Source: an uncultured Candidatus Saccharibacteria bacterium
Lineage (GTDB): Bacteria; Patescibacteriota; Minisyncoccia; Phycocordibacterales; UBA12088
Direction: 5' to 3'
Length of the DNA: 64,000 nt
Assembly: GCA_964567265.1 (NCBI GenBank)
Contig: CAZMLK010000001.1
Coordinates: forward strand, 523,723 to 587,722
Shown here: one piece after another, positions 5,596 to 40,022 of the stretch
Numbering within the stretch: position 1 is the first letter of the stretch
Layout of the letters: each line of letters opens with the position of its first letter
The notes under the pieces: model-generated
Told to the model about the DNA's origin: nothing
Seen by the model: only the letters and a program-made list of their open reading frames with translations
Database searches by the model: none
Program-made: the position numbers and the translations under genes

Positions 5596-5614
5596 ATGCG
5601 TGTCGCGTTGTTAC

Positions 5615-7429
5615 TTATTTTACAACTACTTTTTCCGGCTGGAGCGATACGAGGCTGTCCTTCTTGATGTTGTCCACGAACGCATCGAGCGGCGTATGCG
5701 CGACGCAGGTCACCATGTCTGCTCCGCCATAATAGATGTACAGCTCTCCCTTGATGACCGCAGCCCCGCATGGATAAATCACTCCCCATTTGTGGCCATG
5801 GTTCTCGTACTCGGCATCCGGGACCGCGATCGGCAGGCGCGCGCGATAGAGCACCTTGGTCGGATCCTCAAGGTCAAGGATCATGGCACCCATCTTGTAG
5901 CGTCCAGGATCACGATCGTCGACGCCTTGGTAGATCACGAGCCAGCCCGCTTCCGTTTTTATCGGCGGAGGTCCGACGCCCAGCTTGCGGCTGTCCCAGA
6001 ACGACGGGCGCGGCTTGATCTTGTGTTCGCCGGTCAGCCACCGCTTCCCTTTGAATTCAAGATCTGGCACGAAGTCGATGAGCATGTTCGGGAAGATGCG
6101 ATGGAAGAGCACGTACTGCCCGTTGATCTTCTCGGGAAACAGAGCGGCATTCTTGTTGACCTGGTGCGGCCGCGAAATCAGCAAGGGTTGCTTCCACTTC
6201 CAGTTTCCTGCCTTGAAATTATTGAAATCGATCGACGTGATGGCGACGCGCGGCGCCTCCCAGCCGTTGTACGCGACGTAGGTCATGTACACCTTGCCGT
6301 CGATGAGCGTGATCCGCGGATCCTCGCAGCCGCCCCAGCCGCCGCCCGAGGTGTATTCTTGCGTGTGCTGCCACGGGAGGGTTTCCGTACCCTCAGAAGG
6401 CGTCCTGGCTGCATATATAGGATAGGTAAGGCGGTCCGTAAACGAGAGGCCGTCAACCGACGTCGCGTAGCCAACCGTCGACATCCCGTCGTGCCCGATG
6501 GCGCGATAGAGGAGATGCACCTGCTCGCCATCGAAAAGCGCCGCAGGATTGAAGGTCGCGACTGATTCCCAGTGGCTGTCCGCATCCGGACTGAGGACCG
6601 GATTGAGATGGTGCGGCTTCTTGAGGTACGCATCGCCGACCGCGAGCGGATGCTTGAATGGCTCCGGGATCGCGACGGTGTGTATCTCTTTGGCTGCATC
6701 AATCCAGTAGAGTCGGATATCTTCGCCGATGAGGACCGCGCCGAGTGCCTCCGCGATCGTGTCCTTCATGTGTTCCTCGAAAAGGAACGACTCGCCGCTC
6801 CAGATGAGACGCTTCGGATCATCGGAAGCGAAGAGGAATCCTTCGATACGGAGAAGTGTCCCTCCCGCATCGGCCTTCGAGCGGTCCATGAGCACGAGGA
6901 TGCCGGCCGGCGTCGCGAGCGCTCCCCAAATCTTCCCGCCGACGATGCTTGTCCGCGTCTTCTTCCATTTCTTGAAATCCTTGGTTTCCGCGATGGTGAG
7001 GGTATCATCGCCGATGTAGAGCGCGTGGTGATCATGGGCGAAGATGCCCGGCGCCAGCACTGCGGAAGACACGTTTTCCGCGATCTTCCCTTTCACGCAC
7101 CACGAAGACAGGTCTTTCGAGATGGACCCGACAAGCTCGGACTTCTTCCCTTTCGTACGGACGTATGATGCGAAGGCGCCTTCCGGGACCGGAGTCACAT
7201 GCATGTGCGAGAGCGCGCTCACATCCTCAAGCGAACCGCGATCCGTGAGGAGCCGCAGCTTCTTCCGTGGCCGATCGAAGCGCACGCCTTCGCCACTCTT
7301 CTGGAGGAAGACGGCGACATCACCCTTCTTGTCAGTCTCGCGATATACGAGGAGGGCGCTTCGCCCATGTTGGCCGACGCCAAGGGGCACGTTCCCGATC
7401 GCCAGTTGTTTCCCCTTCTTCACAGGCAT
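5615..7429 (-). CDS. GH130-family protein (604 aa) with a degenerate N-terminal GH130-like half and an intact C-terminal GH130 catalytic domain
   Basis: The C-terminal 330 aa carry HLNPVLSPDADSHWESVATFNPAAL, LLYRAIGHDG, GCEDPRITLIDGKVYMTYVAYNG, IYYGGADM. The N-terminal 270 aa retain only faint GH130 patterns (ALLVYRETDKKGDVAVFLQKSGEGVRFD). A 20 bp gap separates it from the upstream gene. Confidence 0.8.
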   Translation of the reverse strand: MPVKKGKQLAIGNVPLGVGQHGRSALLVYRETDKKGDVAVFLQKSGEGVRFDRPRKKLRLLTDRGSLEDVSALSHMHVTPVPEGAFASYVRTKGKKSELVGSISKDLSSWCVKGKIAENVSSAVLAPGIFAHDHHALYIGDDTLTIAETKDFKKWKKTRTSIVGGKIWGALATPAGILVLMDRSKADAGGTLLRIEGFLFASDDPKRLIWSGESFLFEEHMKDTIAEALGAVLIGEDIRLYWIDAAKEIHTVAIPEPFKHPLAVGDAYLKKPHHLNPVLSPDADSHWESVATFNPAALFDGEQVHLLYRAIGHDGMSTVGYATSVDGLSFTDRLTYPIYAARTPSEGTETLPWQHTQEYTSGGGWGGCEDPRITLIDGKVYMTYVAYNGWEAPRVAITSIDFNNFKAGNWKWKQPLLISRPHQVNKNAALFPEKINGQYVLFHRIFPNMLIDFVPDLEFKGKRWLTGEHKIKPRPSFWDSRKLGVGPPPIKTEAGWLVIYQGVDDRDPGRYKMGAMILDLEDPTKVLYRARLPIAVPDAEYENHGHKWGVIYPCGAAVIKGELYIYYGGADMVTCVAHTPLDAFVDNIKKDSLVSLQPEKVVVK

Positions 7430-11160: not shown

Positions 11161-11215
11161 GGGCATACACAAACCCCCGCGTGGCCTTTGGCCACGCGGG
11201 GGTTTGTGTATGCCC
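11161..11215. repeat. 55 bp perfect palindrome (26 bp stem, TTTG loop) between convergent genes, with no flanking U-tract
   Basis: GGGCATACACAAACCCCCGCGTGGCC tttg GCCACGCGGGGGTTTGTGTATGCC read directly. The stem is too long and the U-tract is absent, so it is not a typical intrinsic terminator. Confidence 0.6.
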
Positions 11216-20306: not shown

Positions 20307-22391
20307 ATGTTTCCTCTCGGCTCATTGTTTGCGGCGTTCGCATTTCTGGTCATCGCGAGCTTGATTGCATTTGTATCGAAACGGGTCGGGCTTCCCTACA
20401 CGGCGCTTCTTGCGTTTGTGGGAGCGCTCTTGGCTCCTGTCACCATCTTCGTCCCTGCGCTCGACTTTATGCGGGATCTCGCGCTCACCCCAGAGCTCCT
20501 TTTCTACGTCTTCCTCCCCACTCTTATTTTTGAATCCGCCTACAATATCAATATCCGCCGCTTCCTCGACGATATCTGGTCCATATCTCTTCTCTCGGTC
20601 ATATCGCTCCTCATATCCTCCTTCCTGATCGCCGGAGGCATGTTCTTCCTCCTCGGCTGGATCGGCTTTCCGATTCCGTTCATGGTCGCGCTCATCTTCG
20701 GCTCGCTTATTTCGGCAACCGACCCGGTCGCAGTACTCGCGCTCTTCAAAGAATACGGCGCGCCCCGTCGTTTGTCTCTGATATTCGAGGGCGAGTCGCT
20801 CTTCAACGACGGGACCGCAGTTGCCTTCTTCCTTATCGTCCTTGGAATCGCGCTCAATGGATACCATGGATTTACAACCCTTGGTGAAGGTCTCCTCGGA
20901 TTCCTCGTCATGGTCGGCGGCGGAATCGTGATCGGGCTCCTTTTTGGCGGTGCCTTCGCACACGCGGTCGGATGGGCAAAATCAAATGAATCCGTATCGA
21001 TTACGCTCACGCTGGTCCTAGCGCACCTTACCTTCATCCTGACCGATGTCCTTTCGCAAACGCTCGCGTTTGGCGGACACTCGATCCATCTCTCTGCCAT
21101 CATCGCGACCACCGTTGCCTCGATGGTCATGGGCAACTACGGGCGGTACAAGATTTCCCCGCGCGCCGAGGAGTTCATTGAGAAATTCTGGGGCCAGCTG
21201 GCGTTCATCGCGAATTCTCTTGTGTTTGTGCTCATCGGATTCCTGTTCGTCCAAGTCCCCGCGACGACCCCCTCGTTCATCGTTCCTATTCTGTTATCCA
21301 TAGTCATCGTCGCCGCAAGCCGCGCACTCTCGATCTATCCGGTCATTTCTGGCCTCAATCTCTTCGCAAGCGTTGAAAAGCAGATTCCGCTTTCCTGGCA
21401 GCACCTTCTTTCGTGGGGCTCTCTCCGCGGTGCACTCGCCGTCACCATGGTCCTTCTTATCCCTGATACGCTCACATTTCCAGGGTGGTCATATGCCTTC
21501 ACTGCAAAGGAATTTATCCTCGCGGTTACGGTTGGCTGTGTCTTCACCACACTGTTCCTGAAGGCTCCGACCATCGGCCCACTCATGCGCCGCATGAAGA
21601 TCGATGCACTGACCCCGCTCGAGGCGCTTGAATACGAGGAAGCGCGAGCGCTTGTCGAGAGTGCGGTACTCACGCGCCTCGATGATTTCTCCGCTAAAGG
21701 ATACATTGACGCCAATATCTACGAAAAGCTGCGGAAGGAGCACGAGGTCCGGTATAACGACGCATGCCGGGGATGCGCAGACGAAACTGGTGAGCTCGCG
21801 CTCCGGGCGCTCCGCATCCATGCGATTGGTATCGAGCGCCACTACCTGAAGGATCTCTACGTGTACGGCGAAGTAAGTGAAAATGTGGTTCGTCGAATCA
21901 TGTCCAAACTGGAGCTCCAACTCGAGCGCGTGGAACATGGGATTCTTTCCGGGCCTGATTTCCATGTGTCGGCAGAACACGACATCTTCGAGCGGTTATT
22001 TGGAGGAATTCGTGAAATACTCCGACCGCAAACGCTCGCTGCCAAAGCAGCTGAGGATTATGGATACTACCGGGCACAATCAATCATTGCGCGTAAAGTC
22101 GTCAAGGAACTGACCCAAACGAACCCGGACGGCAAGAGTCCAATCTTCTCCGCACGTGCACTCGAGCGCATTATCGAAATCTATCAGATCTTCCGCGACG
22201 GCTCAGAAAAGAAATTACAGTCGATCGCAGCAGCCCATCCAGAAATAGCGTCGGAAACCAATACCCTTCTGGCACGCCGCGGCCTGTTCAAAGTCGAGGA
22301 GGCCGTACTTGGAGATCTCTTCCGGAAGGAGCTGATTACACCAAAAATCTACATCAGCCTGCGAGATCAGTTTGAGGAGGAGGTGAAATAA
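20307..22391 (+). CDS. Monovalent cation:proton antiporter (CPA1/NhaP type) with a C-terminal cytoplasmic regulatory domain
   Basis: About 12 TM helices including the CPA1 motifs (FESAYNINIRRF-like, TDPVAVLALFKE). The ~270 aa soluble C-terminal extension is as in NhaP2-type exchangers. Confidence 0.9.
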   Translation: MFPLGSLFAAFAFLVIASLIAFVSKRVGLPYTALLAFVGALLAPVTIFVPALDFMRDLALTPELLFYVFLPTLIFESAYNINIRRFLDDIWSISLLSVISLLISSFLIAGGMFFLLGWIGFPIPFMVALIFGSLISATDPVAVLALFKEYGAPRRLSLIFEGESLFNDGTAVAFFLIVLGIALNGYHGFTTLGEGLLGFLVMVGGGIVIGLLFGGAFAHAVGWAKSNESVSITLTLVLAHLTFILTDVLSQTLAFGGHSIHLSAIIATTVASMVMGNYGRYKISPRAEEFIEKFWGQLAFIANSLVFVLIGFLFVQVPATTPSFIVPILLSIVIVAASRALSIYPVISGLNLFASVEKQIPLSWQHLLSWGSLRGALAVTMVLLIPDTLTFPGWSYAFTAKEFILAVTVGCVFTTLFLKAPTIGPLMRRMKIDALTPLEALEYEEARALVESAVLTRLDDFSAKGYIDANIYEKLRKEHEVRYNDACRGCADETGELALRALRIHAIGIERHYLKDLYVYGEVSENVVRRIMSKLELQLERVEHGILSGPDFHVSAEHDIFERLFGGIREILRPQTLAAKAAEDYGYYRAQSIIARKVVKELTQTNPDGKSPIFSARALERIIEIYQIFRDGSEKKLQSIAAAHPEIASETNTLLARRGLFKVEEAVLGDLFRKELITPKIYISLRDQFEEEVK

Positions 22392-22407
22392 CATACAGTC
22401 AGTAGTC

Positions 22408-22442
22408 AAAAAGCCCGGCCCCTAAAAGGGGCCGGGCTTTTT
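22408..22442. terminator. Bidirectional intrinsic terminator (AAAAAGCCCGGCCCC-taaaa-GGGGCCGGGCTTTTT)
   Basis: 10 bp GC stem flanked by A5 and T5, between convergent genes. Confidence 0.8.
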
Positions 22443-22452
22443 GAAATCCCTA

Positions 22453-23466
22453 CTATGCTCGCACCTCCCGCACATTCACCACGCGCGCCTCGTCTCCGTT
22501 CGGAACCGCGATCCGGTCATGGTCGAACGAGTCGACGTATCCGATCGTGAATGCGTAATGCTTGCCCCCGATCTCAAGGGTTCCCTCTTTCCGCTCCTCG
22601 TCTCCTTTCGCGAACTGATTGAAGGCGCGCACGCCCATCCGGATCCGATTTTCCATGGTCGCGTCAGCTCCGGAAAGGATAGCGGGGTCGATCCTGAACT
22701 CACCTCCTCGTCCGGTCAAGCGGAAGAGATCATTTCTCGCCGCAAGTTTTTCTACGGGAGTGTTTGCGCTTTTGAGAAGGATTTCTGAGATTTCATTGAA
22801 TGCCGCATCGGGTTTGCTGAAGAGGAACTGGATCGCCTTGGCGTATGCATCTGCGCGATTTGCACCAGCTTCCACGATTTGATAGAGCTGGCTTTCGCGA
22901 CGCTCATCAGCGCTCGGCATGCCGGTCGAGACCACTACAGACTCGGGGCGAACAATGGATACGGGCGGAGCCGACTGCGGAACCGGAGCGGCAGGAACTT
23001 CTTTGGGAGCGACTTCGATACGAACCATCGGGCCTCCGGGAAATGCACGTCCAACAATGTACTGCTTTTCAAGCACGGGAGGAGCGGTCGCGACGGGTGC
23101 GGCCTCAACGGCTGGAACGGGAGGAATTACCGCAACGGCTTCGGGAGATGGAACAGGGGCTCTAGGAGTCGCGACCTCTAGAGGTGCGGCAGCTGCGTAC
23201 ACGGGGTTTGGATTTCCCCACTGCTTCCATCCTTCGTGGATGAGCCCTGCGTCCGTCTGAGGCACTTCGCCGACCGCCTGAGCTGGTGTTGGCTCCGATT
23301 CCCACGCTTTCGCGCCCGCACTAATCGCACTGCCTTCAGTCGCAAAATCGCCCGCCTCGTTCAGGAACTTGGGTCCTGGCGCCGCAGCTGGAGCTGAGAC
23401 AACCTCGAGCCTGATTCTGTCATTATCATTTGCAGGCTCGATTCCCGGTGCACGTTCAGCGCTCAT
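22453..23466 (-). CDS. Hypothetical protein with a long Pro/Ala/Val-rich low-complexity N-terminal half and a globular C-terminal domain
   Basis: 337 aa. No signal peptide and no recognisable family. Confidence 0.45.
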   Translation of the reverse strand: MSAERAPGIEPANDNDRIRLEVVSAPAAAPGPKFLNEAGDFATEGSAISAGAKAWESEPTPAQAVGEVPQTDAGLIHEGWKQWGNPNPVYAAAAPLEVATPRAPVPSPEAVAVIPPVPAVEAAPVATAPPVLEKQYIVGRAFPGGPMVRIEVAPKEVPAAPVPQSAPPVSIVRPESVVVSTGMPSADERRESQLYQIVEAGANRADAYAKAIQFLFSKPDAAFNEISEILLKSANTPVEKLAARNDLFRLTGRGGEFRIDPAILSGADATMENRIRMGVRAFNQFAKGDEERKEGTLEIGGKHYAFTIGYVDSFDHDRIAVPNGDEARVVNVREVRA

Positions 23467-23544
23467 AGGTCAGTTCTTCGAATTATATAAACTATTGTCG
23501 ATATTCTAGCATCGAAATGGCGACGGAAGAACCAGGATGCTAGC

Positions 23545-24918
23545 ATGGTCTGCATGGCCACCGGCCCCGACACCAACCTCCGCAACCGGATTATCGGCCC
23601 CACACTCCTTGTCGCGTTTGCGTGGCTCCTCTACGCGCTTGGCGTCGCCTGGCGATTTTGGTACATACTTTTCGACCATCGTGCTACGAATTTTATCTTC
23701 AGCGATATGCAGAATTATGCAGTCGTGGGAATGAAGATGTTCAACGGCACACCTCTTTCTATCTCAGATACGATCTGGTCGCCCGGCGCATCGCTGTTAT
23801 TCGGGTACTTCGGGACGCTGTCTCCCGCATTTTCAGCGACGATGGCAGTGCAGTTCTTCATCTCCGCGGCAGTCCCGGTCCTCCTCTTCCTTCTCACCCG
23901 CAAGATCTACGGACGCCCGGAAGCGTATCTTGCCCTCGTCTTCGCAACCGCCTACTTCCCATTCGTCGAATTCTCTGCGTACTTCCTTTCCGAGATCCCA
24001 TTCCTTGCCGTCATACTCCTCGCACTTCTCGCGCTCGTCAACGGGCTCGAGACCCCGCTCCACTGGAAGATGCCATTCTTCGGGTTCGCAGCAGGTCTCC
24101 TCCTTGGCATCGCGGTGGCATTCCGGAGCATCGCCCTTGTCCCGGGCGCGTTCGCGCTCATCGCGCTCCTCATGTTCTTCCCTGGCGCGTATGGATGGAC
24201 GCGTATCCGGAGACTGCTCCTCTTCGGCACGGGAGGATTCGGGCTCGCGATGCTTCCGCTCATGTTCTGGTGTTCTAGCATTGCAGGATTCTTCTGCATC
24301 GGCTCTACGAACGCGGCGCTCACCACGCTCCAGGGTCATTGGTATCCGGGAATCTCCAATTTCTATTTCCATGACCTCAAACGCGGCCATGAGCTTGGAT
24401 TCGGGCCGCCAACGCTCCACGAACGCGGGATCGAAGGCAACCTGAACTTGTATTTCGGCCCGTATGACCAGCCGCGCGTACTCCTGCTCATCCATGATTT
24501 CATCATCGAGCACCCGCGGCTGGCATTCAGCCAGTCGGTCCGGAACGTCAAGGATCTCTACTGGGGCACGGTTCCGTGGCCGTCGTGCTGCAATGCCGCA
24601 CGGAGGATGATGGCCTTCTCGCAGTGGGCATGGCTTCTCCTCCTGGTCATCCCGACGCTCGCGGTCATCGGACGGGTTCCGAAAGGTGACCAGCGCGAGA
24701 ATCGATATCTCCTGCTCCTCATTGCGCCGATCATCGGCATCACGATCGCGGCATTCCTGACGCTCGGCGATCCGCGGTACCGCATCCCCTTCGACTTCAT
24801 CTTCATGATCATCGCGGCGCATGGCTATGTTCTCGCGTTCGAGCACCTCAGGCACTCTTTCCAAACGCAAAAGAGCCGGCGCGTACGCGCCGGCTCTTCA
24901 GGAGTCATTCCAAATTAA
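23545..24918 (+). CDS. GT-C fold polytopic membrane glycosyltransferase (ArnT / PMT / YkcB-like, probably polyprenyl-phosphate-sugar dependent)
   Basis: 457 aa with about 11 TM helices. The N-terminal loop between TM1 and TM2 and the overall topology resemble GT-C enzymes. No exact motif could be confirmed by eye. Confidence 0.6.
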   Translation: MVCMATGPDTNLRNRIIGPTLLVAFAWLLYALGVAWRFWYILFDHRATNFIFSDMQNYAVVGMKMFNGTPLSISDTIWSPGASLLFGYFGTLSPAFSATMAVQFFISAAVPVLLFLLTRKIYGRPEAYLALVFATAYFPFVEFSAYFLSEIPFLAVILLALLALVNGLETPLHWKMPFFGFAAGLLLGIAVAFRSIALVPGAFALIALLMFFPGAYGWTRIRRLLLFGTGGFGLAMLPLMFWCSSIAGFFCIGSTNAALTTLQGHWYPGISNFYFHDLKRGHELGFGPPTLHERGIEGNLNLYFGPYDQPRVLLLIHDFIIEHPRLAFSQSVRNVKDLYWGTVPWPSCCNAARRMMAFSQWAWLLLLVIPTLAVIGRVPKGDQRENRYLLLLIAPIIGITIAAFLTLGDPRYRIPFDFIFMIIAAHGYVLAFEHLRHSFQTQKSRRVRAGSSGVIPN

Positions 24919-26752: not shown

Positions 26753-28483
26753 CTACACTTTTGAGCCCTTCGCAAGACGTTTGGAGAGCTCCTGCTGCTC
26801 GCGAAGCAAGGTTTCCACCTCGCTATGCTTCCCGAGCATCTCGGCGTCCCGCACCTGCTGTTCGATGCGACGAAGCTGGTCGCGGACAATTTCACCGGAG
26901 AGCCGGTCCAGCGCATGCTCGATAAGATCCTCAGGGTGGGAATCCGCGAGTACCTGCTCGGCTTCAAAGAGCGATTCCTGATCCTCGGCACGGAGCGCGA
27001 TCAGGTTGGCAACCGCTTCATCGCCGACGATGTCGCCGAAGCGAGTCGTCACGAGCTCCCGGTCGAATGCCGGCGTCGTCTTCGGTGCTTCGAGATACAG
27101 CATCGCGGCAATGAGCCGCTCCAACTTCTCGCGCTGGCTCTGGGCAGGACGAAGCGGGACGGACGCCGATTCTTCCTTCGGCATTTCCGGAAGCGCAGTC
27201 GCGGAAATCTTGGAGAGCTCATCCCATACGGCCTCCTCGCGGATGCCGAGGAAACCGGCGACCTTCGAGACGAAATGCGCCTGGTCGATCGCGCTCTGGA
27301 TGTTCTTGATGAACGGAAGGACCGCCTCGCGGACACGGAGCTCGCGCGTCCGAGCATCCAGCCCCTGTTCAGCGAGAAGCGCCAACTGGAAATCAACCAC
27401 ATGCTTCGACTCGCGGACTGCTTGCTTCCAGAGGTTCGGATCTTCCTTTACGGCATCCGCGGGATCTTTCCCCGAGGGCACGCGTGCGATCTTCACATCC
27501 ATGCCGCGGCGGAGCGCGAGCGCAGTCCCGCGCATCGCGGAGGCGACACCAGCGCTGTCCGCATCGAATGCCATCACGATATTGTTCGAGATCCGGGAAA
27601 GGAGCGTGAGGTGGTCGTCCGTGAGACCAGTGCCGCTTGCGGCAACCGTGTTCGGGAATCCGCCCTGATGCGACATCACGAGATCCATCTGGCCTTCAAC
27701 AAGAATCGAGAAGTTGTATTTCCGGATCGCGCTCTTCGCCCTCGTGTAGCCGTAGAGGATCTTCCCTTTTTCAAAGAGCTCCGTCTCAGGGCTGTTGAGA
27801 TACTTCGGCGCCTTGCCGCTTCCGTCGTCTGGAAACAGACGACCAGAGAATGCGACGACACGCTCGCTGGTATCTGTAATCGGGAAGAGAATACGGCCGC
27901 GGAAGCGATCGTATGGCTCCTTCCCTTTTCCTTCAGCATCCGGCTTCTTCGTGAGGCCGCCGCGCAGCATCTCGTCGTCGGTGAAGCCAAGTTTCTGGAG
28001 GTGGGTGCGCATCGGACGCCAGTCGCTCGGCGCATAGCCAACCCGCCACTCATGGATGGTCTTCGTGAGTAACCCGCGGCCGTTCAGATATTTCTCCGCC
28101 TCCGGATATTTTACAAACTCCTCCTCAAAATATTTCGCGGCAGCTTCCATGACCTCATGCAGGCGATCAGCGCGCTTCCGCGCTTCGGGATTCTCCTGCG
28201 TCAATTTCACACCCGCCTTGTCGGCAAGGATCTTGAGCGCGCCGCGGAAATCCACGCCCTCCATTTCCTGGATGAAGCTGAACGCGTCGCCGCCTTTCTG
28301 GGTCGAGAAGCAGTAGTACGAATTCCGCTCCGGAGAGACCATGAAGGACGGCGTCCGCTCCTTCTTGAAGGGCGAGAGGCCCTTGTAGTTCTTGCCGGCC
28401 TTGGTCAGCTTCACATACTGCGAAACCACCTCAACGATATTGAGCCGGTCCTTGATCTCTTGCACCTGGGAGTTTCCTGCCAT
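26753..28483 (-). CDS. dnaG: DNA primase
   Basis: CHC2 zinc finger ([15 protein letters not shown]) and TOPRIM ([15 protein letters not shown]). Classical dnaG-rpoD adjacency. Confidence 0.95.
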
Positions 28484-28526
28484 CTGGCAATTATATCACC
28501 TCTACTCCATTGGGTTGTTTGGCCTA

Positions 28527-28556
28527 TTGACATTAATTTATATATATGTTTATATA
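28527..28556 (+). promoter_or_regulatory. Sigma-70-like promoter (TTGACA, 17 nt, TTATAT/TATATA) for the small gene at 28587
   Basis: Consensus -35 hexamer in an AT-rich patch. AGGAGA RBS sits 5 nt before the ATG. Confidence 0.45.
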
Positions 28557-28586
28557 TGATTCGTAACTTCTAGACAGGAGAGCGAG

Positions 28587-28829
28587 ATGGCGAAGTATCT
28601 GGACCCCGCTAAGGTAAGGAAGTATGGTCGCTGCATCACCGGGGATCATGAGCTTCGTAAGGGGGGTGAGGAGATTGCGGTAACCCTCTACAATAACGGC
28701 GTCTTCGATGTCGTTCCGTACGATGACCCCGATTACGTGGAGAATCAGTACAGGGCTGGCATGTTCATTACCAAGCAACTCTATGCATTCCCTCTCAGCC
28801 AAGTTGCTTCATCCTTGCAGGTCGGCTAG
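28587..28829 (+). CDS. Small hypothetical protein (80 aa) with its own promoter, RBS and terminator
   Basis: ORF plus flanking signals. No recognisable family. Confidence 0.5.
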   Translation: MAKYLDPAKVRKYGRCITGDHELRKGGEEIAVTLYNNGVFDVVPYDDPDYVENQYRAGMFITKQLYAFPLSQVASSLQVG

Positions 28830-28849
28830 GCACAAGCCTTTGCCCTGCC

Positions 28850-28884
28850 AATGCCCCGACTTCGGTCGGGGCATTCTTCTTTTT
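28850..28884 (+). terminator. Intrinsic terminator, family A copy 1 (AATGCCCCGAC-ttcg-GTCGGGGCATT, then CTTCTTTTTCTG)
   Basis: 11 bp stem with a UUCG tetraloop. Near-identical to 29266-29302. Confidence 0.8.
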
Positions 28885-28899
28885 CTGATTTAGAAGATA

Positions 28900-28928
28900 T
28901 TGACAATATATAATTTTTAAGGTATTTT
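28900..28928 (+). promoter_or_regulatory. Sigma-70-like promoter (TTGACA, 17 nt, TATTTT) for the small gene at 28965
   Basis: Consensus -35. GGAGG RBS sits 6 nt before the ATG. Confidence 0.4.
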
Positions 28929-28964
28929 TTCAAAAGTCAATTTTGGCTCACACGGAGGTTACCG

Positions 28965-29237
28965 ATGATGACACGCGCTGAGGAAGCGGTCGAGCGCTTC
29001 AAACGAGAATACGATGGCCTTACACCGAGTGAGAAGTATGCTGTGGAAGGATTCCTGACTCCTGCACACAATCTTGGCGTTTCTATTGCACGTGAAATGG
29101 GAGCACTCGCGGATCACAACCGTGATCACACATACTGCAGCTGGAATCCGGGCATCCAGTTCCTCCCCTCGCACTTTCTTTTCGAGGACGGGTCCCGTGC
29201 TGTTTCGAACGACCAAGGGCTTATGCTCGACACCTGA
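28965..29237 (+). CDS. Small hypothetical protein (90 aa)
   Basis: ORF plus RBS plus terminator. No recognisable family. Confidence 0.5.
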   Translation: MMTRAEEAVERFKREYDGLTPSEKYAVEGFLTPAHNLGVSIAREMGALADHNRDHTYCSWNPGIQFLPSHFLFEDGSRAVSNDQGLMLDT

Positions 29238-29265
29238 TCTTCTCTCGATGTCACCCACATTCATA

Positions 29266-29302
29266 ACGCCCCGACTTCGGTCGGGGCGTTCTTCTTTTTC
29301 GG
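29266..29302 (+). terminator. Intrinsic terminator, family A copy 2 (AACGCCCCGAC-ttcg-GTCGGGGCGTT, then CTTCTTTTTCGG)
   Basis: Differs from copy 1 by one compensatory base-pair change (A-T to G-C in the stem). Confidence 0.8.
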
Positions 29303-29354
29303 AAACGTGCTTCCCTGCTATGCTTTCAGAGGAACGAAATTGAGAGAGGGTGTG

Positions 29355-29570
29355 ATGTGTCACGATGCGAGCAGGGACAAGCGACTACAAGAGCTGACCG
29401 CCGAACGGGATGCGGCTCGGGACCCAGAAGCTCTGCTTAGAGCTGAGCTCCGAGCGGAAAGGCGGCGAGGCCTTGGACCCGTTGGCACCTTGATCGAGGA
29501 TGAAATCACAGCTCAAGAGAGACCCCTCCGTGCGCTTGCCGAGCGCGGCGCAATTGGGATGCTGTCATGA
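29355..29570 (+). CDS. Small hypothetical protein (71 aa, Arg/Glu-rich helical)
   Basis: Start chosen at MCHDASRD, preceded by GAGGG. The track ORF begins at 29307. The stop TGA is the first triplet of a family B repeat. Confidence 0.4.
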   Translation: MCHDASRDKRLQELTAERDAARDPEALLRAELRAERRRGLGPVGTLIEDEITAQERPLRALAERGAIGMLS

Positions 29571-29612
29571 CGCGATCCCGTGCTGGCCAACTCGTTGGCC
29601 AGCACGGGATTT
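29568..29612 (+). terminator. Intrinsic terminator, family B copy 1 (TGACGCG-ATCCCGTGCTGGCCAAC-tcg-TTGGCCAGCACGGGAT, then TTTC)
   Basis: 16 bp stem. The repeat begins exactly at the stop codon. Confidence 0.7.
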
Positions 29613-29619
29613 TCAATAC

Positions 29620-29648
29620 TTGGCAATCTCCGTATTCATGTCTATAGT
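29620..29648 (+). promoter_or_regulatory. Sigma-70-like promoter (TTGGCA, 17 nt, TATAGT) for the gene at 29681
   Basis: Read directly from the sequence. GGAG RBS precedes the ATG. Confidence 0.45.
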
Positions 29649-29680
29649 GGTTCCCAAACACGTATCAGTGGAGAACATCC

Positions 29681-30229
29681 ATGCGCTGGTTCTTTGCCAT
29701 CACGCTTCTTGCCGGATTCATTTCTATCGCCACCCCATTCAATGCGCAGGCAGACAAGGCCCCTGTCCATCTTTGGGTACTCAATTCTGCAGATGATCTG
29801 AACGATGCCAATGATCCTACGCTAGCTGCCGGGCCCAAAGCAGCAATTAAAAAAGGGGTGCCGGGAATTGCGATCGACACGACCTTCTACGCAAGTGCCA
29901 CTCCCGAGATCCAAGAGGCAATACGGAAGCAGATTCATAATTTCGGGAGGATAGATCGCATGGTGCTCATGCTCTATTCGCCAACGTATCCTCCTGGAAT
30001 AGCAGGCCAGCTTAACCTTCTCGGAACAGACTACGCGGATAAGAACGCTCCGCGCTGCACCACTTGGCTGGTCGCACGTGTCGTCGATCAGCAAAACGGA
30101 GACCAGATGCTCTGCAATAGCTCGCTCTCGAAGCCGCCTTCCTCAGATTTGATGAACACAATCCTGGTGATCGAGGCAGCGAAGATGCATGCCCTCATCT
30201 TCCCACCTGCAGTGGAAAGGGAAACCTGA
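29681..30229 (+). CDS. Hypothetical secreted protein (182 aa, cleavable signal peptide)
   Basis: MRWFFAITLLAGFISIATPFNAQA is a signal peptide. No recognisable family. Confidence 0.55.
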   Translation: MRWFFAITLLAGFISIATPFNAQADKAPVHLWVLNSADDLNDANDPTLAAGPKAAIKKGVPGIAIDTTFYASATPEIQEAIRKQIHNFGRIDRMVLMLYSPTYPPGIAGQLNLLGTDYADKNAPRCTTWLVARVVDQQNGDQMLCNSSLSKPPSSDLMNTILVIEAAKMHALIFPPAVERET

Positions 30230-30276
30230 CGCGATCCCGCGCTGGCCAACAAGTTGGCCAGCGCGGGATTTCCTTT
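30227..30276 (+). terminator. Intrinsic terminator, family B copy 2 (TGACGCG-ATCCCGCGCTGGCCAAC-aag-TTGGCCAGCGCGGGAT, then TTCCTTTTTG)
   Basis: Same element as 29568-29612 with a compensatory T-A to C-G change. It also begins at the stop TGA. Confidence 0.75.
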
Positions 30277-30294
30277 TTGAATTCCAACTAAGAC

Positions 30295-30325
30295 AAAACG
30301 CCGCCCGGAGGGCGGCGTTTTGTTT
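30295..30325. terminator. Bidirectional intrinsic terminator (AAAACGCCGCCC-gga-GGGCGGCGTTTT), shared by rpoC (-) and the 29681 gene (+)
   Basis: Perfect 12 bp stem flanked by A4 and T4, 15 nt past the rpoC stop. Confidence 0.85.
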
Positions 30326-30339
30326 CAGCTTTTGCAGTA

Positions 30340-33300
30340 CTAGTCGACTTCTGCAACGACTCCTCCTGCTTCTGCCGGGCTATACACTGGGACTTCGTTC
30401 GCTTCTTCGTTGAGACGAATTTCTTCCTGGAGCGCAGAAACATGTGCATGCTTCTGGCTTCCCTTGTAGCCGGTTCCTGCAGGGATGAGGCGGCCGATGA
30501 TGACGTTCTCCTTGAGGCCGCGGAGCGTGTCCGTGCTTCCCTTCACTGCCGCACCGATCAAGACCTTCGTGGTGTTCTGGAACGATGATGCTGAGAGGAA
30601 CGACTTCCTGGTGAGCGCGACTTCCGCGATGCCGAGGATGAGCGTGTCAGCGACTGCTGGCTCGCCGCCTTCCTCCTTGGTGCGCGCATTGATCTCATCA
30701 AGCTCCCAATCCTCGACGATGTCGCCCATGTTGAGGCGCGTATCGCCCGAGAGCTTCACCTTCCGGCGAGAGAACATCTGCTTCACGATGACTTCGATGT
30801 GCTTCCGAGAAATGGTAACGCCCTGGAGCTCGTAGATGCGGCTTGCTTCCTGGATGATGTATTCCTGCGCGCGCTCTTTGCCGGAGTATTTGAAGACTTC
30901 CTCGATGTCTGCGGAGCCGTCGGTAAGGAGTTCGCCCTTCTCGACCGACTGCCCGACTTTGACGAGGATCATGCGGCGGAAGTGGACTCCGTATTCGAGC
31001 GCCTTGCCCTTCTTCGTAGAACCTTCTTCCGGCATGACGACGATGATCTTCTCCTTTCCTTCTTCCTTGATCTCGGTCACGACGCCCGCAGTATGGGAGA
31101 CGATCGCCGGATTCTTCGGCATGCGGGACTCGAAGATTTCTTCGACGCGTGGGAGACCGGTCGTGATGTCGCCGCCAATCGCCGCGACGCCTCCTGAGTG
31201 GAAGGTACGCATGGTGAGCTGGGTTCCCGGCTCGCCGATCGCCTGCGCGGCGACGGTACCGACTGCTTCGCCGATATCAACGACCTTGGTGGTCGTGAGA
31301 TCAGTGCCATAGCAGTGCTGGCAGACGCCGTAGCCTGTCTTGCAGGTCATTGGAGAGCGGACGAGGACCGAGACCGTGCTCGACTCCTCGATCTTCTTCG
31401 CATCGGCGCCGGTGACGAGGTGGTTCCGCTCGAAGAGCGTGTTTCCTTCCGCATCAACAGCCGGCTTCGCGAGATAACGTCCTTCGATGGTCTTCGCGAG
31501 CGGGATATCGATACCGGATGCGCTCACGCGGCCGATGACGACACCTTCCTTCGAATTACAATCCTCATCGGTGACGATCGCGTTCTGCGCGACATCGAAG
31601 AGTCGGCGGGTGAGGTAGCCAGCCTTCGCGGTGTTGAGCGCGGTGTCGGAGAGACCTTTACGCGCGCCGTGCGTCGTGACGAAATATTCGATCGGCGAAA
31701 GTCCCTCCTTCATGCAGGCGATGATCGGGAATTCGATCGTCTCGCCCTGTGTGTTCTGGATGAGGCCCTTCATGCCGGCCATCTGCGTGATCTGGCCCAT
31801 GGAACCGCGGGCTCCGGAGACGACGAGGTCATGGACGGATCCGTTCGGATCGAGTGTCTCAGGAATGAGCTTCTCGACATCGCTCTTGGCCTTGTGCCAG
31901 ATCTCGATGATCATGCGGCGGCGTTCTTCGCCGGAGAGGAGTCCTTCGTTGAACTGGTTGATGATGGTGATCTGCTTCGCCTTCGCTTCGCGCACGATCT
32001 CCTTCTTCTTTTCTGGAATGTGGAGGTCGCCGATCGCCCAGGTCACGCCGGACTTCGTCGCATACTTGAATCCGAACGCCTTGATCTTGTCCAAGGTCGC
32101 CGGCACGGCGCCGAGGCCGTACTTGTGGATCATCTGGTTGGTGAGGTTGAGGAGCGACTGCTTCTTCAGCTCTTCGTTGAGGTATGGGAAATCAGACGGA
32201 AGGACGCTGTTGAAGAGCAGGCGGCCGACGGTGGTCTCGAAGACCTTGCCCTCGAATCCTGCATACTTCGCCGAGTCGCTCGGCAAGACCTTGATCTTGG
32301 AGCGGAGGTCGATGTCTGCGAAGTCGTATGCGGTAATCGCATCGTTCGGCGAGGCGAATGCCTTGCCTTCGCCCTTGCCGCCCGGAACGACTTTCGTCAT
32401 CCAGTAGCAGCCGAGCGCGATGTCGAGCATCTTCGTCGCGACCACTGGATCGCCGTTTCCTGGCTTCAGGATGTTCTTCGAGGACGACATGATCTCGCGC
32501 GCCTCCATCTGCGCCTCTTCTGAAAGCGGCACGTGGACAGCCATCTGGTCGCCGTCGAAGTCAGCGTTGAACGCTGGGCACACGAGCGGATGCACCTGGA
32601 TCGCGTTGCCTTCGATGAGGACCGGGCGGAATGCCTGGATACCCTGGCGGTGAAGCGTCGGGGCGCGGTTGAGGAGCACGTGCTTGTCGCGGATCACCTC
32701 TTCGAGGATCGCCCACACTTCAGGCGTGCCTTCTTCGATGAGGCGGCCGGCGCCGCGGATGTTGTATGCGAATTCGCGCTCAAGCAATTTCGCGATCACG
32801 AACGGACGGAAGAGTTCGAGCGCCATGTGCTTCGGCAGACCGCACTGGTCGAGCTTCAAATCCGGACCGACGACGATCACCGAGCGTCCTGAGTAGTCGA
32901 CGCGCTTTCCGAGAAGGTTCTGTCGGAAGTAACCCTGCTTGCCCTTGAGGTAGTCAGAAAGCGACTTCAAAGGACGGCGCTGCGCCTGGCTCATCGCTGA
33001 TGCCGCCGCATTGCCGTGACGGATCGAGTTGTCGAGGAGTGCGTCAACGGCTTCCTGGAGGATGCGCTTCTCGTTGCGGAGAATGACCTCCGGCGCATGG
33101 ATATCAAGAAGTTTCTTGAGGCGGTTATTGCGGTTGATGACACGGCGGTAGAGGTCGTTCACGTCGGATGTCGCATGGCGACCGCCTTCAAGCGCGACCA
33201 TCGGACGGAGTCCTGGCGGAATGACCGGAAGCGCAGTGACGAACATCCATTCCGGACGCACGCCTGCGGCAACCATGTTCTTCACCAAGGAGAGTCGCTT

Positions 33301-34062
33301 CGCGATCTTCGGGCGATCGCCCGCACCCGACTTGTCATAGTCGGCTTCGAGCTGCTCGCGAAGCTTCGGAAGGTCTGCCTTCTTGAAGATCTCGAACACG
33401 GCTTCGGCACCAATGCCCGCTTCGAAGAGCGCGCCGTACTTCATCGAGTAGCGGTGGTACGACATCTCGTCGAGCACCTGGCCTGCCTGGATGCGTTCGA
33501 TCTCTTCCTTTGCTGCTGTGAGGAGTTCCTTGAGCTTCTTCTTAGTCTTCTCATCCTGCGCGTCCTTCGACTTGGTCTTGTATTCAGTATCGATATCGCG
33601 AAGGAGGCGCGCACGCTCTTCCTCGTTCACATTGAGGACGATGTAGCCTGCGAAGTAGACGACCTTCTCGATGTCAGTCGCGGAGAGTCCGAGGAGGATG
33701 GCCATGCGTGACGGGACGCCACGGAGGAACCAGATGTGCGCGACCGGAGTCGCGAGCTCGATGTGGCCCATGCGCTCGCGGCGGACGATCGAACGCGTGA
33801 TCTCGACGCCGCAGCGGTCGCAGACGATCCCTTTGTAGCGGATGCCCTTGTACTTGCCGCAGAAGCATTCGAAGTCGCGCTCCGGGCCGAAGATCTTCTC
33901 ATCGAAGAGGCCACTCTTTTCTGAACGCTGGGTACGATAGTTGATGGTTTCCGGCTTGGTCACCTCGCCATGGGACCAGTCGCGGATCCGATCTGGGGAT
34001 GCGAGCCTGATCGAGATCAGGTCGAAATCCGGCGCATCGTTGATTTTTTTCTTGGGTATCAT
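30340..34062 (-). CDS. rpoC: DNA-directed RNA polymerase subunit beta'
   Basis: 1240 aa with the NADFDGDQM catalytic loop, zinc-binding Cys clusters, trigger loop and bridge helix. Confidence 0.98.
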
Positions 34063-37790: not shown

Positions 37791-37821
37791 AAAAGGCCGC
37801 CGCGAGCAAGCTCGCGGCGGC
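37791..37821 (-). terminator. Intrinsic terminator, family C copy 1 (GCCGCCGCGAGC-tt-GCTCGCGGCGGC, then CTTTTGTTTT on the minus strand)
   Basis: Perfect 12 bp stem directly after the stop of the 37830..38168 gene. Identical 30-mer to 38281-38312. Confidence 0.75.
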
Positions 37822-37829
37822 ACATCTCG

Positions 37830-38168
37830 TCAGGTCAATCGCGGCCAAGTCTCCGTCTGAAGTGAGTGGTGAGCTTCAACGAGCTCAGCGAACCCCGCAT
37901 AGAGTTCATCCGCAAGAGCTTCTATCTCCGACTCTCTTGGTGGGCGAACGATACCGATGCTGGCACTTCGGTCTCCGAGGATATCGCACCTGAGGTAAAG
38001 CGCATGGCATGCAGCCCTCGAATCAAAGGTGCACTTGAACTTGACGGCCCCATGCCATTCTTTCGGCAACTTGCGGAAAAATACCCCCAGAATCTTCAGC
38101 ATGTACTCGGTGGTTGCTGGTGTAACGTCGCCCCCACGATCGAGCGTATAGGACAAGGTCAACTTCAT
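37830..38168 (-). CDS. Hypothetical protein (112 aa)
   Basis: ORF followed by a terminator. No recognisable family. Confidence 0.4.
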   Translation of the reverse strand: MKLTLSYTLDRGGDVTPATTEYMLKILGVFFRKLPKEWHGAVKFKCTFDSRAACHALYLRCDILGDRSASIGIVRPPRESEIEALADELYAGFAELVEAHHSLQTETWPRLT

Positions 38169-38280: not shown

Positions 38281-38312
38281 AAAAAGGCCGCCGCGAGCAA
38301 GCTCGCGGCGGC
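38281..38312 (-). terminator. Intrinsic terminator, family C copy 2 (identical core AAAAGGCCGCCGCGAGCAAGCTCGCGGCGGC)
   Basis: Directly after the stop of the 38319..39395 gene. T6 follows on the minus strand. Confidence 0.75.
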
Positions 38313-39395: not shown

Positions 39396-39533
39396 GCAAC
39401 GCTCCCTATATGCAGGAGTTGTATCTCAAAATATAGAGCATTAATTATTCACATTTGTCAATGTTTCGCCGCGCTTGCCGTCGAACTCAAGAAACGAGGC
39501 CACCGCTTTTGAGGCGATGGCCGGTTGCATCAA

Positions 39534-39965
39534 TTATGCAGATTGGCGGATATGCTCATCCGCGAACAGTGGCGCTGGGAGCAGGCAGGTTGCCGCAGAT
39601 GCGCCGAAGGCTAGGCGGAAATCTTCCGGTGAAGCAACAAATCTCGCTTCTGCGCGCATCTGATTGAGATCGAAACTTGCGAACGGAACATGGAATGTGT
39701 CTTCGACACGAGTCAGGTTCCCCTCTTCGATCAGCCTGCGCAAATCGGGGTGCGTGCCTGTGAAGTATCCGCCGATCCTCTGATTCCTGATGATTTCGTT
39801 GGCGGAACAGAAAGTGAATACCGAGAACGCAGGAGTCCTGACCCTGAGGGTGCGCCAGGTCGCTTCGTTACTGAGACACCCCTTGTGTTCTCGCAGCTTC
39901 TGGCGATGGATTTCCGTCATCACTGCTGTGACATCACCGTTGGTGCACACATGGAGATTGGGCAC
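39534..39965 (-). CDS. Hypothetical protein (143 aa)
   Basis: ORF only. Competing antisense ORFs exist. Confidence 0.25.
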   Translation of the reverse strand: MPNLHVCTNGDVTAVMTEIHRQKLREHKGCLSNEATWRTLRVRTPAFSVFTFCSANEIIRNQRIGGYFTGTHPDLRRLIEEGNLTRVEDTFHVPFASFDLNQMRAEARFVASPEDFRLAFGASAATCLLPAPLFADEHIRQSA

Positions 39966-40022
39966 GTGTTTCGCCTCACTGGGGTTTCTTGCGGATTGCT
40001 CCGCTCCGGCACTGTATTAACA

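Follow-up and report, generated by a model that had tools for sequence, protein, structure and literature searches.

Near-identical pairs of putative terminator hairpins bracket small gene units in a Patescibacteria genome

A 1.86-kb island of low GC3 in a Patescibacteria genome, flanked by dnaG and rpoC on the - strand, carries four small + strand ORFs and, among them, two pairs of near-identical hairpins (families A and B). This raises the question of what has been copied here, and of whether the hairpins are terminators duplicated in place, mobile repeats, or sites at which genes are exchanged. The analysis was based on a 64-kb stretch of DNA, termed the window below, and on comparison with close and more distant relatives.

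The island and its hairpin pairs

GC3 ranges from 0.56 to 0.64 in the island ORFs vs 0.74-0.80 in housekeeping genes, and looks foreign. The rpoC-dnaG gap measures only 50 nt in a relative with 49% DnaG identity, which suggests that the island is derived and was acquired between rpoC and dnaG by a genus-level Patescibacteria lineage. ORF1 (80 aa, 28587-28829, +) is an orphan. A promoter-like site for this first island gene, P1 (TTGACA-17 nt-TTATAT, 28527-28555, +), is divergent from dnaG; it was read from the sequence and is absent from the consensus promoter scan list, and its -35 context CTATTGACA is kept in L144, L152, and L151. ORF2 (90 aa, 28965-29237, +) is lineage-specific, and its promoter-like site P2 (TTGACA-17 nt-TATTTT, 28900-28928, +) lies 15 nt past the tail of the first A hairpin. 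ORF3 (71 aa, 29355-29570, +) is of doubtful coding status and may not be a gene. No evident promoter was found upstream of it, it is uncalled on two of three public contigs, its codon changes relative to strain L152 comprise four non-synonymous and one synonymous, and its GC content drops from 0.75 at first codon positions (GC1) to 0.56 at third positions (GC3). ORF4 (182 aa, 29681-30229, +) has a signal-peptide-like N-terminus and a promoter-like site, P4 (TTGGCA-17 nt-TATAGT, 29620-29648, +), which, judged by eye, resembles the site upstream of the ORF4 orthologue in L149 and L150.

The small ORFs gave no matches to PHROGs or Pfam, and a homology search with ORF4 and an exhaustive search with ORF2 returned essentially their own strain variants only. 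An orthologue of ORF2 is the first island gene of L151 (38% identity, E 2e-9), and 186/187-aa ORFs of L149 and L150 are orthologues of ORF4 (33% identity, E 7e-27). At 30288-30328 the island contains a third hairpin, unrelated to A and B, with an A-run on one side and a U-run on the other and folding energies of -28.5 kcal/mol (+ strand) and -30.7 kcal/mol (- strand). Situated between ORF4 and rpoC, which converge, it probably serves as a terminator in both directions.

The first-pass annotation had described two pairs of near-identical hairpins, and all four were found in the sequence as stable folds. Hairpin A1 (28850-28888, +), the putative intrinsic terminator of ORF1, starts 20 nt past the ORF1 stop codon and reads AATGCCCCGAC-TTCG-GTCGGGGCATT with tail CTTCTTTTTC (28850-28885); its copy A2 (29265-29303, +), the putative terminator of ORF2, reads AACGCCCCGAC-TTCG-GTCGGGGCGTT with the same tail (29265-29300). 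Both have an 11-bp stem, a cUUCGg loop, and a U-rich tail CUUCUUUUUC, with folding energies of -20.8 kcal/mol (A1; z -5.2) and -22.4 kcal/mol (A2), and A1 scores 65.5 bits with covariance model R1. Over 39 nt the two copies differ at three positions: T>C and A>G at paired stem positions, which turn a U-A pair in A1 into C-G in A2, exactly the compensated change reported earlier, and one base past the tail. A 20-nt core of A occurs in >120 unrelated metagenome contigs and appears to be a generic, convergently recurring terminator; the core alone is therefore insufficient to establish common origin. A1 and A2 are regarded as true copies because the match extends through stem and tail and because their flanks agree at 16/19 positions, vs <=12/19 in controls (101 unrelated contigs with the same 20-nt core).

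The B unit comprises 45 nt starting TGACGCGATCCCG, with a stem of 16-17 bp. B1 (29568-29612, +) consists of TGA, CGCGA, the stem with loop CUCG, and then UUUUCAAUACUU; it ends the ORF3 region, whose stop codon lies inside the duplicated unit, and stands 8 nt upstream of the -35 box of P4. B2 (30227-30271, +) begins at the ORF4 stop codon and has loop CAAG and tail UUUCCUUUUUG. The folding energies are -34.3 kcal/mol (B1; z -6.9) and -34.8 kcal/mol (B2), and the scores with covariance model R2 are 68.1 and 81.4 bits, respectively. B1 has a short U-tract (UUUU, then CAAUACUU), weaker than the other tails. The B copies had been said to differ only by a compensated pair; the paired T>C and A>G changes are indeed present, but two loop bases also differ (CTCG vs CAAG), giving four differences in all. 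Likewise, both copies do start at an in-frame TGA, but the description of these as the stops of two unrelated genes holds only if ORF3 is a gene. The 45 nt in common include the non-stem TGACGCG, which argues for true copies rather than convergence.

ORF1 and ORF2 have neither protein nor DNA similarity to each other, and the same holds for ORF3 and ORF4, in agreement with the earlier view that duplication involved the hairpins rather than the genes; if a gene and its terminator were once duplicated in tandem and then diverged, neither ORF pair retains a trace of it. The sequences downstream are also unrelated between A1 and A2 and between B1 and B2, and the same is true of a third pair, C. 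C1 (38282-38312, -), a putative terminator after a 358-aa gene, reads GCCGCCGCGAG-CUUG-CUCGCGGCGGC followed by CUUUU, and C2 (37791-37821, -) is an exact 31-nt copy 491 nt downstream. Both have a gCUUGc loop and a CUUUU(U/G)UU tail, with folding energies of -27.4 and -27.0 kcal/mol, respectively. C2 lies behind a 112-aa orphan ORF (37830-38168, -) that has its own TTGACA box, is bracketed by C1 and C2, and is not on record by exact look-up. In relative L146 no ORF is present at this position in the shorter spacer (~420 nt; 358-aa gene to rpoB), and the terminator there has a sequence different from C. Pairs A, B, and C are the longest exact direct repeats of the whole window. Other very long perfect palindromes, with 25-26-bp arms, were noted at 11161-11215 and 55994-56045.

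Terminator features and covariation in relatives

The hairpins look like stop-proximal intrinsic terminators, as had been proposed. All lie 0-27 nt past stop codons on the coding strand (ORF1-4 on +, the 358-aa and 112-aa ORFs on -), a U-rich tract follows directly 3' of the stem in A, B2, and C and more weakly in B1, and promoter-like sites come after A1 and B1. A consensus terminator scan lists A1, A2, and B2. The z-scores of the A and B folds range from -4.7 to -7.4, or from -3 to -7.4 with C included, and Rfam returned sub-threshold matches only, to the terminator ends of unrelated families. Like known intrinsic terminators, the hairpins have a GC-rich stem capped by a stable tetraloop (cUUCGg in A, gCUUGc in C), a U-tract on the 3' side, a post-stop position on the coding strand, and a structure kept by compensatory change. 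The locus differs from such terminators in that two near-identical copies bracket a gene unit and in that the hairpin sequence is better conserved than the proteins ahead of it.

This last difference emerges from relatives with 64-66% DnaG identity, which have the same hairpins, A behind the ORF2 orthologue and B behind the ORF4 orthologue. The motifs are therefore not confined to this genome; the first-pass annotation would have taken the opposite outcome, absence from all relatives, to indicate a chance local duplication. In L151, the ORF2 orthologue is followed by AACGCUUCGAC-UUCG-GUCGGAGCGUU; in L149 and L150, the ORF4 orthologues are followed by a stop codon and GCGAACCCGCGCC...GGCGCGGG. 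The hairpins are largely identical across these relatives while the ORF2 and ORF4 orthologues are only 33-38% identical, and the U-tails and the position adjacent to the stop codon are also conserved.

Selection on structure had been claimed from the two copies; the one compensated pair is weak evidence of it alone, but the relatives add three pairs changed on both sides in family A and seven of 16 in family B. Across relatives, 97% of cells are paired in family A, in which pair 8:31 shows the full series A-U, G·U, and G-C. In family B 95.8% are paired, a value matched by none of 500 shuffles, and slid controls are 29-48% paired. The apical part of B has been rewritten among L146, L149, L150, and the window, so that lengths and loops differ while pairing is full. 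The double-sided pairs and the overall pairing of 96-97% support selection on the RNA stem structure. Location, copy number, sequence, structure, conservation, and covariation of the hairpins are all direct observations.

Taken together, we consider it probable that A, B, and C are intrinsic terminators of small monocistronic gene units, that each was copied once locally, and that their stems are under selection. Termination itself, as well as the direction and mechanism of duplication, is what we infer from the sequence. In each unit, a small orphan ORF would be preceded by a sigma-70-like promoter and followed by a hairpin and its U-tract. The units would occupy a fast-turnover island and be transcribed opposite to the essential rpoBC and dnaG-rpoD, so strong hairpins would halt transcription between units as well as antisense read-through into rpoC. 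Judged from the relatives, A and B would be old within the island, A as the terminator of the ORF2 family and B as that of the ORF4 family, and each hairpin would have been copied once locally as a neighboring unit was added or remodeled. B2 is best read as the ancestral copy, orthologous to the terminator behind the ORF4 orthologues in L149 and L150, and B1 would be a copy of the 3' end of the ORF4 unit, TGA stop codon included. Selection on the RNA stem would then have held all copies perfectly paired as they diverged, giving rise to the compensated pairs. Plain duplication alone leaves unaccounted for that three separate terminators each bracket one gene unit.

Recombination, template switching, and mobile repeats

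This bracketing could reflect recombination. Terminators might double as portable recombination sites, at which exchange between similar hairpins would insert, excise, or swap promoter-ORF-terminator cassettes, and such exchange would give a pattern of hairpin X, gene, hairpin X. Three independent brackets of this kind, each enclosing a promoter and an ORF, occur in 64 kb and correspond to the longest direct repeats of the window. Strains L144 and L152 have an unrelated 75-aa ORF in place of ORF1, the first island gene; homology ends past the -35 box and returns 6 nt before A1, which forms the right junction, and no residual similarity remains between ORF1 and the 75-aa ORF, whose local alignment score lies inside the shuffle range. 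Moreover, divergence between L152 (~90% ANI) and the window drops from 62/649 in dnaG (9.6%) to 13/1382 (0.9%) directly after A1 (Fisher p = 3e-20), a step that hints at a role of the hairpins as recombination junctions. What precedes hairpin A varies: ORF1, the 75-aa ORF, a member of the ORF2 family, or, in L146, a second terminator. These four are mutually unrelated, as are the three sequences that precede hairpin B. The foreign-looking GC3 of the island ORFs would also fit this reading.

Several observations count against it. The three families are mutually unrelated and have two copies each, so that there is no shared site, and the repeat is the stem-loop only, not a module of promoter plus stem-loop. 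No polymorphism between empty and occupied sites with the same hairpin was seen, the L146 terminator at the C position being different, and no duplicated hairpins were found in 47 kb of relatives with 64-66% DnaG identity. At 30-45 bp, the stretches of homology are short by the standards of RecA-type exchange. The L152 assembly may be chimeric, because its junction sits at a repeat in a short metagenome contig. On balance, recombination at the hairpins appears unlikely, although it is the least improbable of the alternatives.

Cassette exchange of this kind has been proposed for T4-type phages, in which promoter-early stem-loop (PeSL) regulatory cassettes provide a precedent (Arbiol et al. 2010, PMC2839356; Comeau et al. 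2014, PMC4122927). These are ~100-bp composite modules of promoter and stem-loop, present in ~50 copies per phage genome, for which mini-circles have been demonstrated (PMC2839356; PMC4122927). As with PeSL, the ORFans of a hyperplastic region between conserved core genes are flanked by repeated stem-loop terminators that adjoin sigma-70-like promoters, and where a gene is replaced between close relatives the junctions fall at the motif, here in L144 and L152 with the right junction at A1. The locus differs from PeSL in that a stem-loop of 31-45 nt (plus tail) alone is repeated, in two copies for each of three unrelated families, and in that the host is a cellular Patescibacteria chromosome in which neither circles nor empty sites were observed. 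A bolder proposal is that terminator hairpins also serve as the points at which gene cassettes cross over with no recombinase involved, each exchange leaving a hairpin copy on either side of the unit; this would be the cellular equivalent of PeSL shuffling in phages and is slightly less likely than recombination at the hairpins as such.

The units also recall phage morons. Morons are independent promoter-gene-terminator units inserted between conserved genes, and the units described here are likewise, as far as sequence can tell, autonomous and independently transcribed promoter-ORF-terminator units of atypical composition between conserved genes. Unlike morons, they reside in a cellular chromosome with no prophage, and neither PHROG hits nor matches to viral contigs were obtained.

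Two further readings concern the substitutions and the repeats themselves. The paired substitutions could have arisen by quasipalindrome correction at the DNA level rather than by selection at the RNA level; in this process, template switching within a hairpin at replication copies a change from one arm to the other. The perfection of the stems, the length of the B stems, which at 16-17 bp exceeds the needs of termination, and the other perfect palindromes with 25-26-bp arms in the window would be in line with this. What speaks against it is the nature of the intermediates in the relatives: five of five one-sided changes within a stem that is intact elsewhere give G·U on the + strand, equivalent to A·C on the opposite strand, and none is A·C on the + strand (binomial p = 0.03-0.06). 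Such asymmetry is expected for RNA selection and unexpected for DNA template switching. In addition, the apical rewriting of B among L146, L149, L150, and the window would need many steps, all retained, and the U-tails and stop-adjacent position are conserved too. Quasipalindrome correction is thus improbable as the source of the paired changes, and selection on the RNA stem remains the preferred reading of them.

The hairpins are short, palindromic, intergenic, and repeated, and the first-pass annotation had raised the option that they are dispersed REP- or MITE-like elements. A and B would then be mobile REP/REPIN- or MITE-like repeats that happen to be seen twice here. REP/REPIN and MITE elements are likewise short repeated intergenic palindromes that can act as terminators or mRNA stabilizers. 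The k=31 contig of L144 ends with its last 30 nt inside A1 sequence common to an A2-type copy, which is the assembly-graph signature of a repeat, but two local A copies suffice to explain this break. In the 64-kb window, which represents ~10% of the source genome (621,860-bp contig), each of the A and B core patterns occurs exactly twice, vs 0.00-0.02 expected from shuffles, so the pairs are not due to chance, and all copies lie within 1.5 kb of each other. Covariance models detected no further A or B copy in the other 62 kb of the window and none in ~95 kb of relatives outside the rpoC-dnaG island, which leaves dispersal unsupported. The B core matched 21 unrelated single sites in 185,579 GTDB species genomes, with the source genome not among the matches, and B and C gave no matches to viral contigs. 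A Pfam scan of 32 of the larger ORFs of the window revealed no transposase, integrase, RAYT, or tyrosine recombinase, and the flanks of the hairpins show no target-site duplication and no terminal inverted repeats beyond the stem itself. With two local copies per family in the window in place of dispersal, and with neither a transposase among the ORFs scanned nor target-site duplications found, the REP/MITE reading lacks its defining features and was rejected as highly improbable.

Integron-type attC sites in an integrase-less cassette array (CALIN) would also place an imperfectly conserved palindrome directly 3' of each small orphan ORF in an array-like layout. The defining features of attC are two extrahelical bases, outer R''/R' core sites (GTTRRRY), and the IntI recombinase, and integron integrases recognize the extrahelical bases in the folded bottom strand (PMC3053210). 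This reading was rejected on those features as scarcely credible: the stems are perfect, with no bulges or extrahelical bases; outer RYYYAAC/GTTRRRY core sites are absent, the GCCAAC/GTTGGC of B lying at the loop end rather than the outer end; each unit has its own promoter-like site; no tyrosine recombinase is present among the window ORFs scanned; and the U-tracts and + strand G·U wobbles point to an RNA function.

Implications for gene turnover

As terminators the elements appear ordinary, and they do not behave as a dispersed mobile repeat. Their value lies first in illustrating cleanly, with support from covariation, the intrinsic terminators of an uncultivated Patescibacteria lineage, and second in marking a gene-turnover hot spot between rpoC and dnaG. 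The 64 kb contain three cases of the hairpin-bracketed layout, and genuine recombination at terminators may underlie the drop in divergence at A1. Streamlined genomes would then have a simple route for the turnover of orphan genes, each acquired or lost as a self-contained unit of expression. A cassette system, if real, could explain how orphan genes turn over beside essential operons in ultra-small genomes without disrupting them.

The dnaG-rpoC island and its hairpins

The genes dnaG (26753-28483, minus strand; Pfam primase domains) and rpoC (30340-34062, minus strand) are separated by a spacer of 1,856 bp (28484-30339), with rpoD past dnaG on one side and rpoB past rpoC on the other; the closest homologues of DnaG are from Patescibacteria (labelled Paceibacteria or Parcubacteria in the sources). 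This island carries four small plus-strand ORFs, ORF1 (28587-28829, 80 aa), ORF2 (28965-29237, 90 aa), ORF3 (29355-29570, 71 aa) and ORF4 (29681-30229, 182 aa), for which Pfam and PHROG searches returned zero matches. GC content is 0.52 in the spacer versus 0.57-0.60 in the flanks, and GC3 is 0.56-0.64 in the island ORFs versus 0.74-0.80 in dnaG, rpoD, rpoB and rpoC. An exhaustive HMMER search with ORF2 recovered only its own cluster and one borderline match (E 1e-3; residues 23-87, 36% identity) to part of the 1,317-aa protein P0123, which could be a domain relationship or noise.

Re-reading of the sequence agreed with the first-pass annotation on four plus-strand hairpins, A1 (28850-28888), A2 (29265-29303), B1 (29568-29612) and B2 (30227-30271), except in the B loop: B1 and B2 were said to differ only by a compensated base pair, which is present, but two loop bases also differ (CTCG versus CAAG). 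Predicted fold energies are -20.8, -22.4, -34.3 and -34.8 kcal/mol for A1, A2, B1 and B2, respectively, with z-scores of -4.7 to -7.4; shuffles predict 0.00-0.02 occurrences of each core in the window, where there are exactly two. A separate hairpin unrelated to either family, which folds well on both strands, lies between the convergent ORF4 and rpoC (30288-30328). An exact match to the whole island in two public Logan contigs (SRR16481186 and SRR16481187) indicates that the repeats are not an assembly artefact of a single record. Promoter-like sites are found 15 nt past the A1 tail (28900-28928) and 8 nt past B1 (29620-29648), and a TTGACA box lies upstream of ORF1 (28527); together with the hairpins, these sites indicate that the island is a series of promoter-ORF-hairpin units, with predicted transcription away from dnaG and toward the 3' end of rpoC.

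Relatives and closely related strains

The comparison with related genomes that had been suggested revealed A and/or B hairpins in four relatives with 64-66% DnaG identity, L146 (GCA_964411375.1), L149, L150 and L151. All four keep the order rpoB-rpoC-island-dnaG-rpoD, with islands of 0.7-1.5 kb that contain different small genes. Only 50 nt separate rpoC from dnaG in a relative with 49% DnaG identity, which implies that the island is a derived hot spot for insertions in a single genus-level clade. The conserved block has another variable slot beside it, the interval from UvrD to rpoD (20307-24918), where the window encodes a 694-aa Na/H exchanger, a 337-aa protein of unknown function and a 457-aa PMT_2-like protein; in L146, L149 and L150 a small Pro_CA_2 gene occupies this interval.

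The first island ORF of L151 is a homologue of ORF2 (38% identity, E 2e-9) and is followed by AACGCTTCGAC-TTCG-GTCGGAGCGTT-ATTTATTTTC, while the sole island ORF of L149 and L150 is a homologue of ORF4 (33% identity, E 7e-27), with its stop codon followed by GCGAACCCGCGCCGA...TCGGCGCGGG and TTCACTTTTC. These pairings indicate that A is the terminator of the ORF2 family and B that of the ORF4 family, and that both are older than the duplications. In L146, the A hairpin is weakened and comes downstream of both a different gene and another terminator; its B hairpin follows an unrelated 116-aa ORF. B2 retains the ancestral arrangement, with GCGA directly after the stop codon; B1, in which TGA and CGCGA are repeated, is therefore the derived copy.

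Strains of approximately 90% identity were compared over L152 1-2421 (window 27857-30256) and L144 1-437. L144 and L145 share 96% DnaG amino acid identity and 90.4% nucleotide identity with the window over dnaG-rpoD, and the dnaG of L152 (SRR14932526) is likewise 90.4% identical (62 mismatches in 649 nt). Both L144 and L152 have an unrelated 75-aa hydrophobic ORF in place of ORF1; in L152, homology to the window stops just past the -35 box and restarts 6 nt before A1. From there to the contig end within B2, identity is 98.7% (18 mismatches in 1,413 nt); five of the mismatches are inside A1 and 13 in the 1,382 nt past it (about 99% identity), a divergence lower than that of dnaG (Fisher's exact test, p = 3e-20). 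This step, which sits exactly at A1, reflects either recent exchange of the right part of the island between lineages of ~90% ANI, with the hairpin as its junction, or a chimeric short contig joined at the repeat. By sequence reading, the last 30 nt of L144 fall within the stretch that its A1 has in common with an A2-type copy, so the contig ends exactly where a k=31 assembly is expected to break at a repeat.

Selection on RNA structure

Covariation was analyzed in alignments of six sequences for each family. Standard pairs occupy 97% of the cells in family A and 95.8% in family B, with both sides changed at three pairs in A and at 7 of 16 in B; the apical half of B is wholly re-written between lineages with its pairing kept. 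The observed covariation score was attained by 3 of 500 shuffles for A and by none of 500 for B, and sliding the partner by 1-3 columns reduced the paired cells to 29-53% and 29-48%, respectively. One-sided changes in otherwise intact stems (L144 pair 8:31; L146 and L151 pair 13:26; L146 pair 16:23; L152 B1 pair 15:46) all yield G·U on the plus strand (5/5), where the opposite strand would give A·C (binomial p = 0.03, or 0.06 if two changes are co-inherited). This bias argues for an RNA transcribed in the same direction as the small ORFs. Palindrome correction purely at the DNA level could also have made paired changes, but the plus-strand-specific G·U intermediates count against it. We infer that the hairpin structure is under selection, and at the RNA level.

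Copy number, a third pair and known systems

Unfiltered covariance searches of the window, using model R1 for family A and model R2 for family B, recovered the known copies alone, a count that rests on ~10% of the source genome; the runners-up, at ≤22 bits, are other, unrelated terminators. No A or B hairpin was found outside the island in the loci of the 64-66% relatives or in ~50% relatives, and a Pfam scan of 32 of the window's larger ORFs found no transposase or integrase. The B core has one match in each of 21 unrelated genomes among 185,579 species representatives, the source genome not among them, and neither B nor C, a third pair described below, matched viral contigs. The 20-nt A core (GCCCCGAC-UUCG-GUCGGGGC) occurs in >120 metagenome contigs with unrelated flanks and a wide GC spread; it is a generic terminator of convergent origin and uninformative on homology. 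A1 and A2 are nevertheless true copies, since the extended stem and tail match beyond controls (flank identity 16/19 versus ≤12/19 across 101 control flanks). Eight of the A-core contigs (L026, L028, L042, L046, L047, L066, L103 and L110; JGI Ga01366xx) have ~70 nt of identical flanks in common (tccctgctcagccggacgtttccgc...gctcaccttgctgcaagatccgggc); L042, a 2.8-kb contig, has the segment inverted at each end, an arrangement similar to terminal inverted repeats in a mobile element from a high-GC organism.

The weak R1 matches included a third pair, GCCGCCGCGAG-CTTG-CTCGCGGCGGC-CTTTT, on the minus strand at 38282-38312 (C1) and 37791-37821 (C2). The copies are identical across 31 nt, no exact direct repeat in the window being longer, and fold at ~-27 kcal/mol each. 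In the spacer between a 358-aa gene and the rpoB leader, they lie on both sides of a 112-aa orphan ORF (37830-38168, minus strand) that has a TTGACA box of its own; the equivalent spacer of L146 is shorter (~420 nt) and contains a single terminator of another sequence and no ORF. The three pairs thus give the layout terminator X-promoter-small ORF-terminator X three times in 64 kb, and 47 kb of the 64-66% relatives contained no duplicated terminators of this kind. Another lineage-specific small ORF (39534-39965, minus strand, ~143 aa) has a weak hairpin 3' and no bracketing duplicate terminators; it occupies a 630-nt gap (39396-40022) between trmD and the 358-aa gene, which is ~100 nt in L146.

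Other repeats in the window include three internal DNA segments repeated at a spacing of ~945-1060 nt (families D1, D3, D4, D8 and D10) in two adjacent GH130-family genes of 634 aa and 604 aa (3691-7429, minus strand), which suggests tandem paralogous domains. Perfect intergenic palindromes at 11161-11215 and 55994-56045 (arms of 26 bp and 25 bp, loops of 2-3 nt) are far longer than termination requires and unrelated to A, B and C.

The hairpins are best explained as putative intrinsic terminators for small genes organized as autonomous units. Since these units are antisense to essential operons, strong hairpins would be retained; each hairpin would have been duplicated locally while the island was remodelled, its RNA stem being maintained afterwards by selection. 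Among described systems, PeSL promoter/stem-loop cassettes in T4-type phages come closest to the bracketing pattern; there, ORFans are inserted, deleted and swapped through recombination between the motifs that flank them (PMC2839356). Both systems bracket ORFans and have junctions located at the motif; unlike PeSLs, for which mini-circles are documented, the present hairpins lie in a cellular genome and lack a composite conserved module and high copy number. The stronger reading, that flanking hairpins here likewise recombine to insert, delete or swap ORFs, seems rather improbable. The REP/MITE, attC (criteria from PMC3053210) and chance readings failed their defining tests in the DNA analyzed. 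What holds from the first-pass annotation is probable terminators with RNA structure under selection (pairing of 96-97%, both-side changes); the option of REP/MITE-like dispersal is not supported, both families being confined to island copies in the window and the relatives examined. As terminators, the hairpins are an ordinary kind of feature; their local history is mildly unusual.
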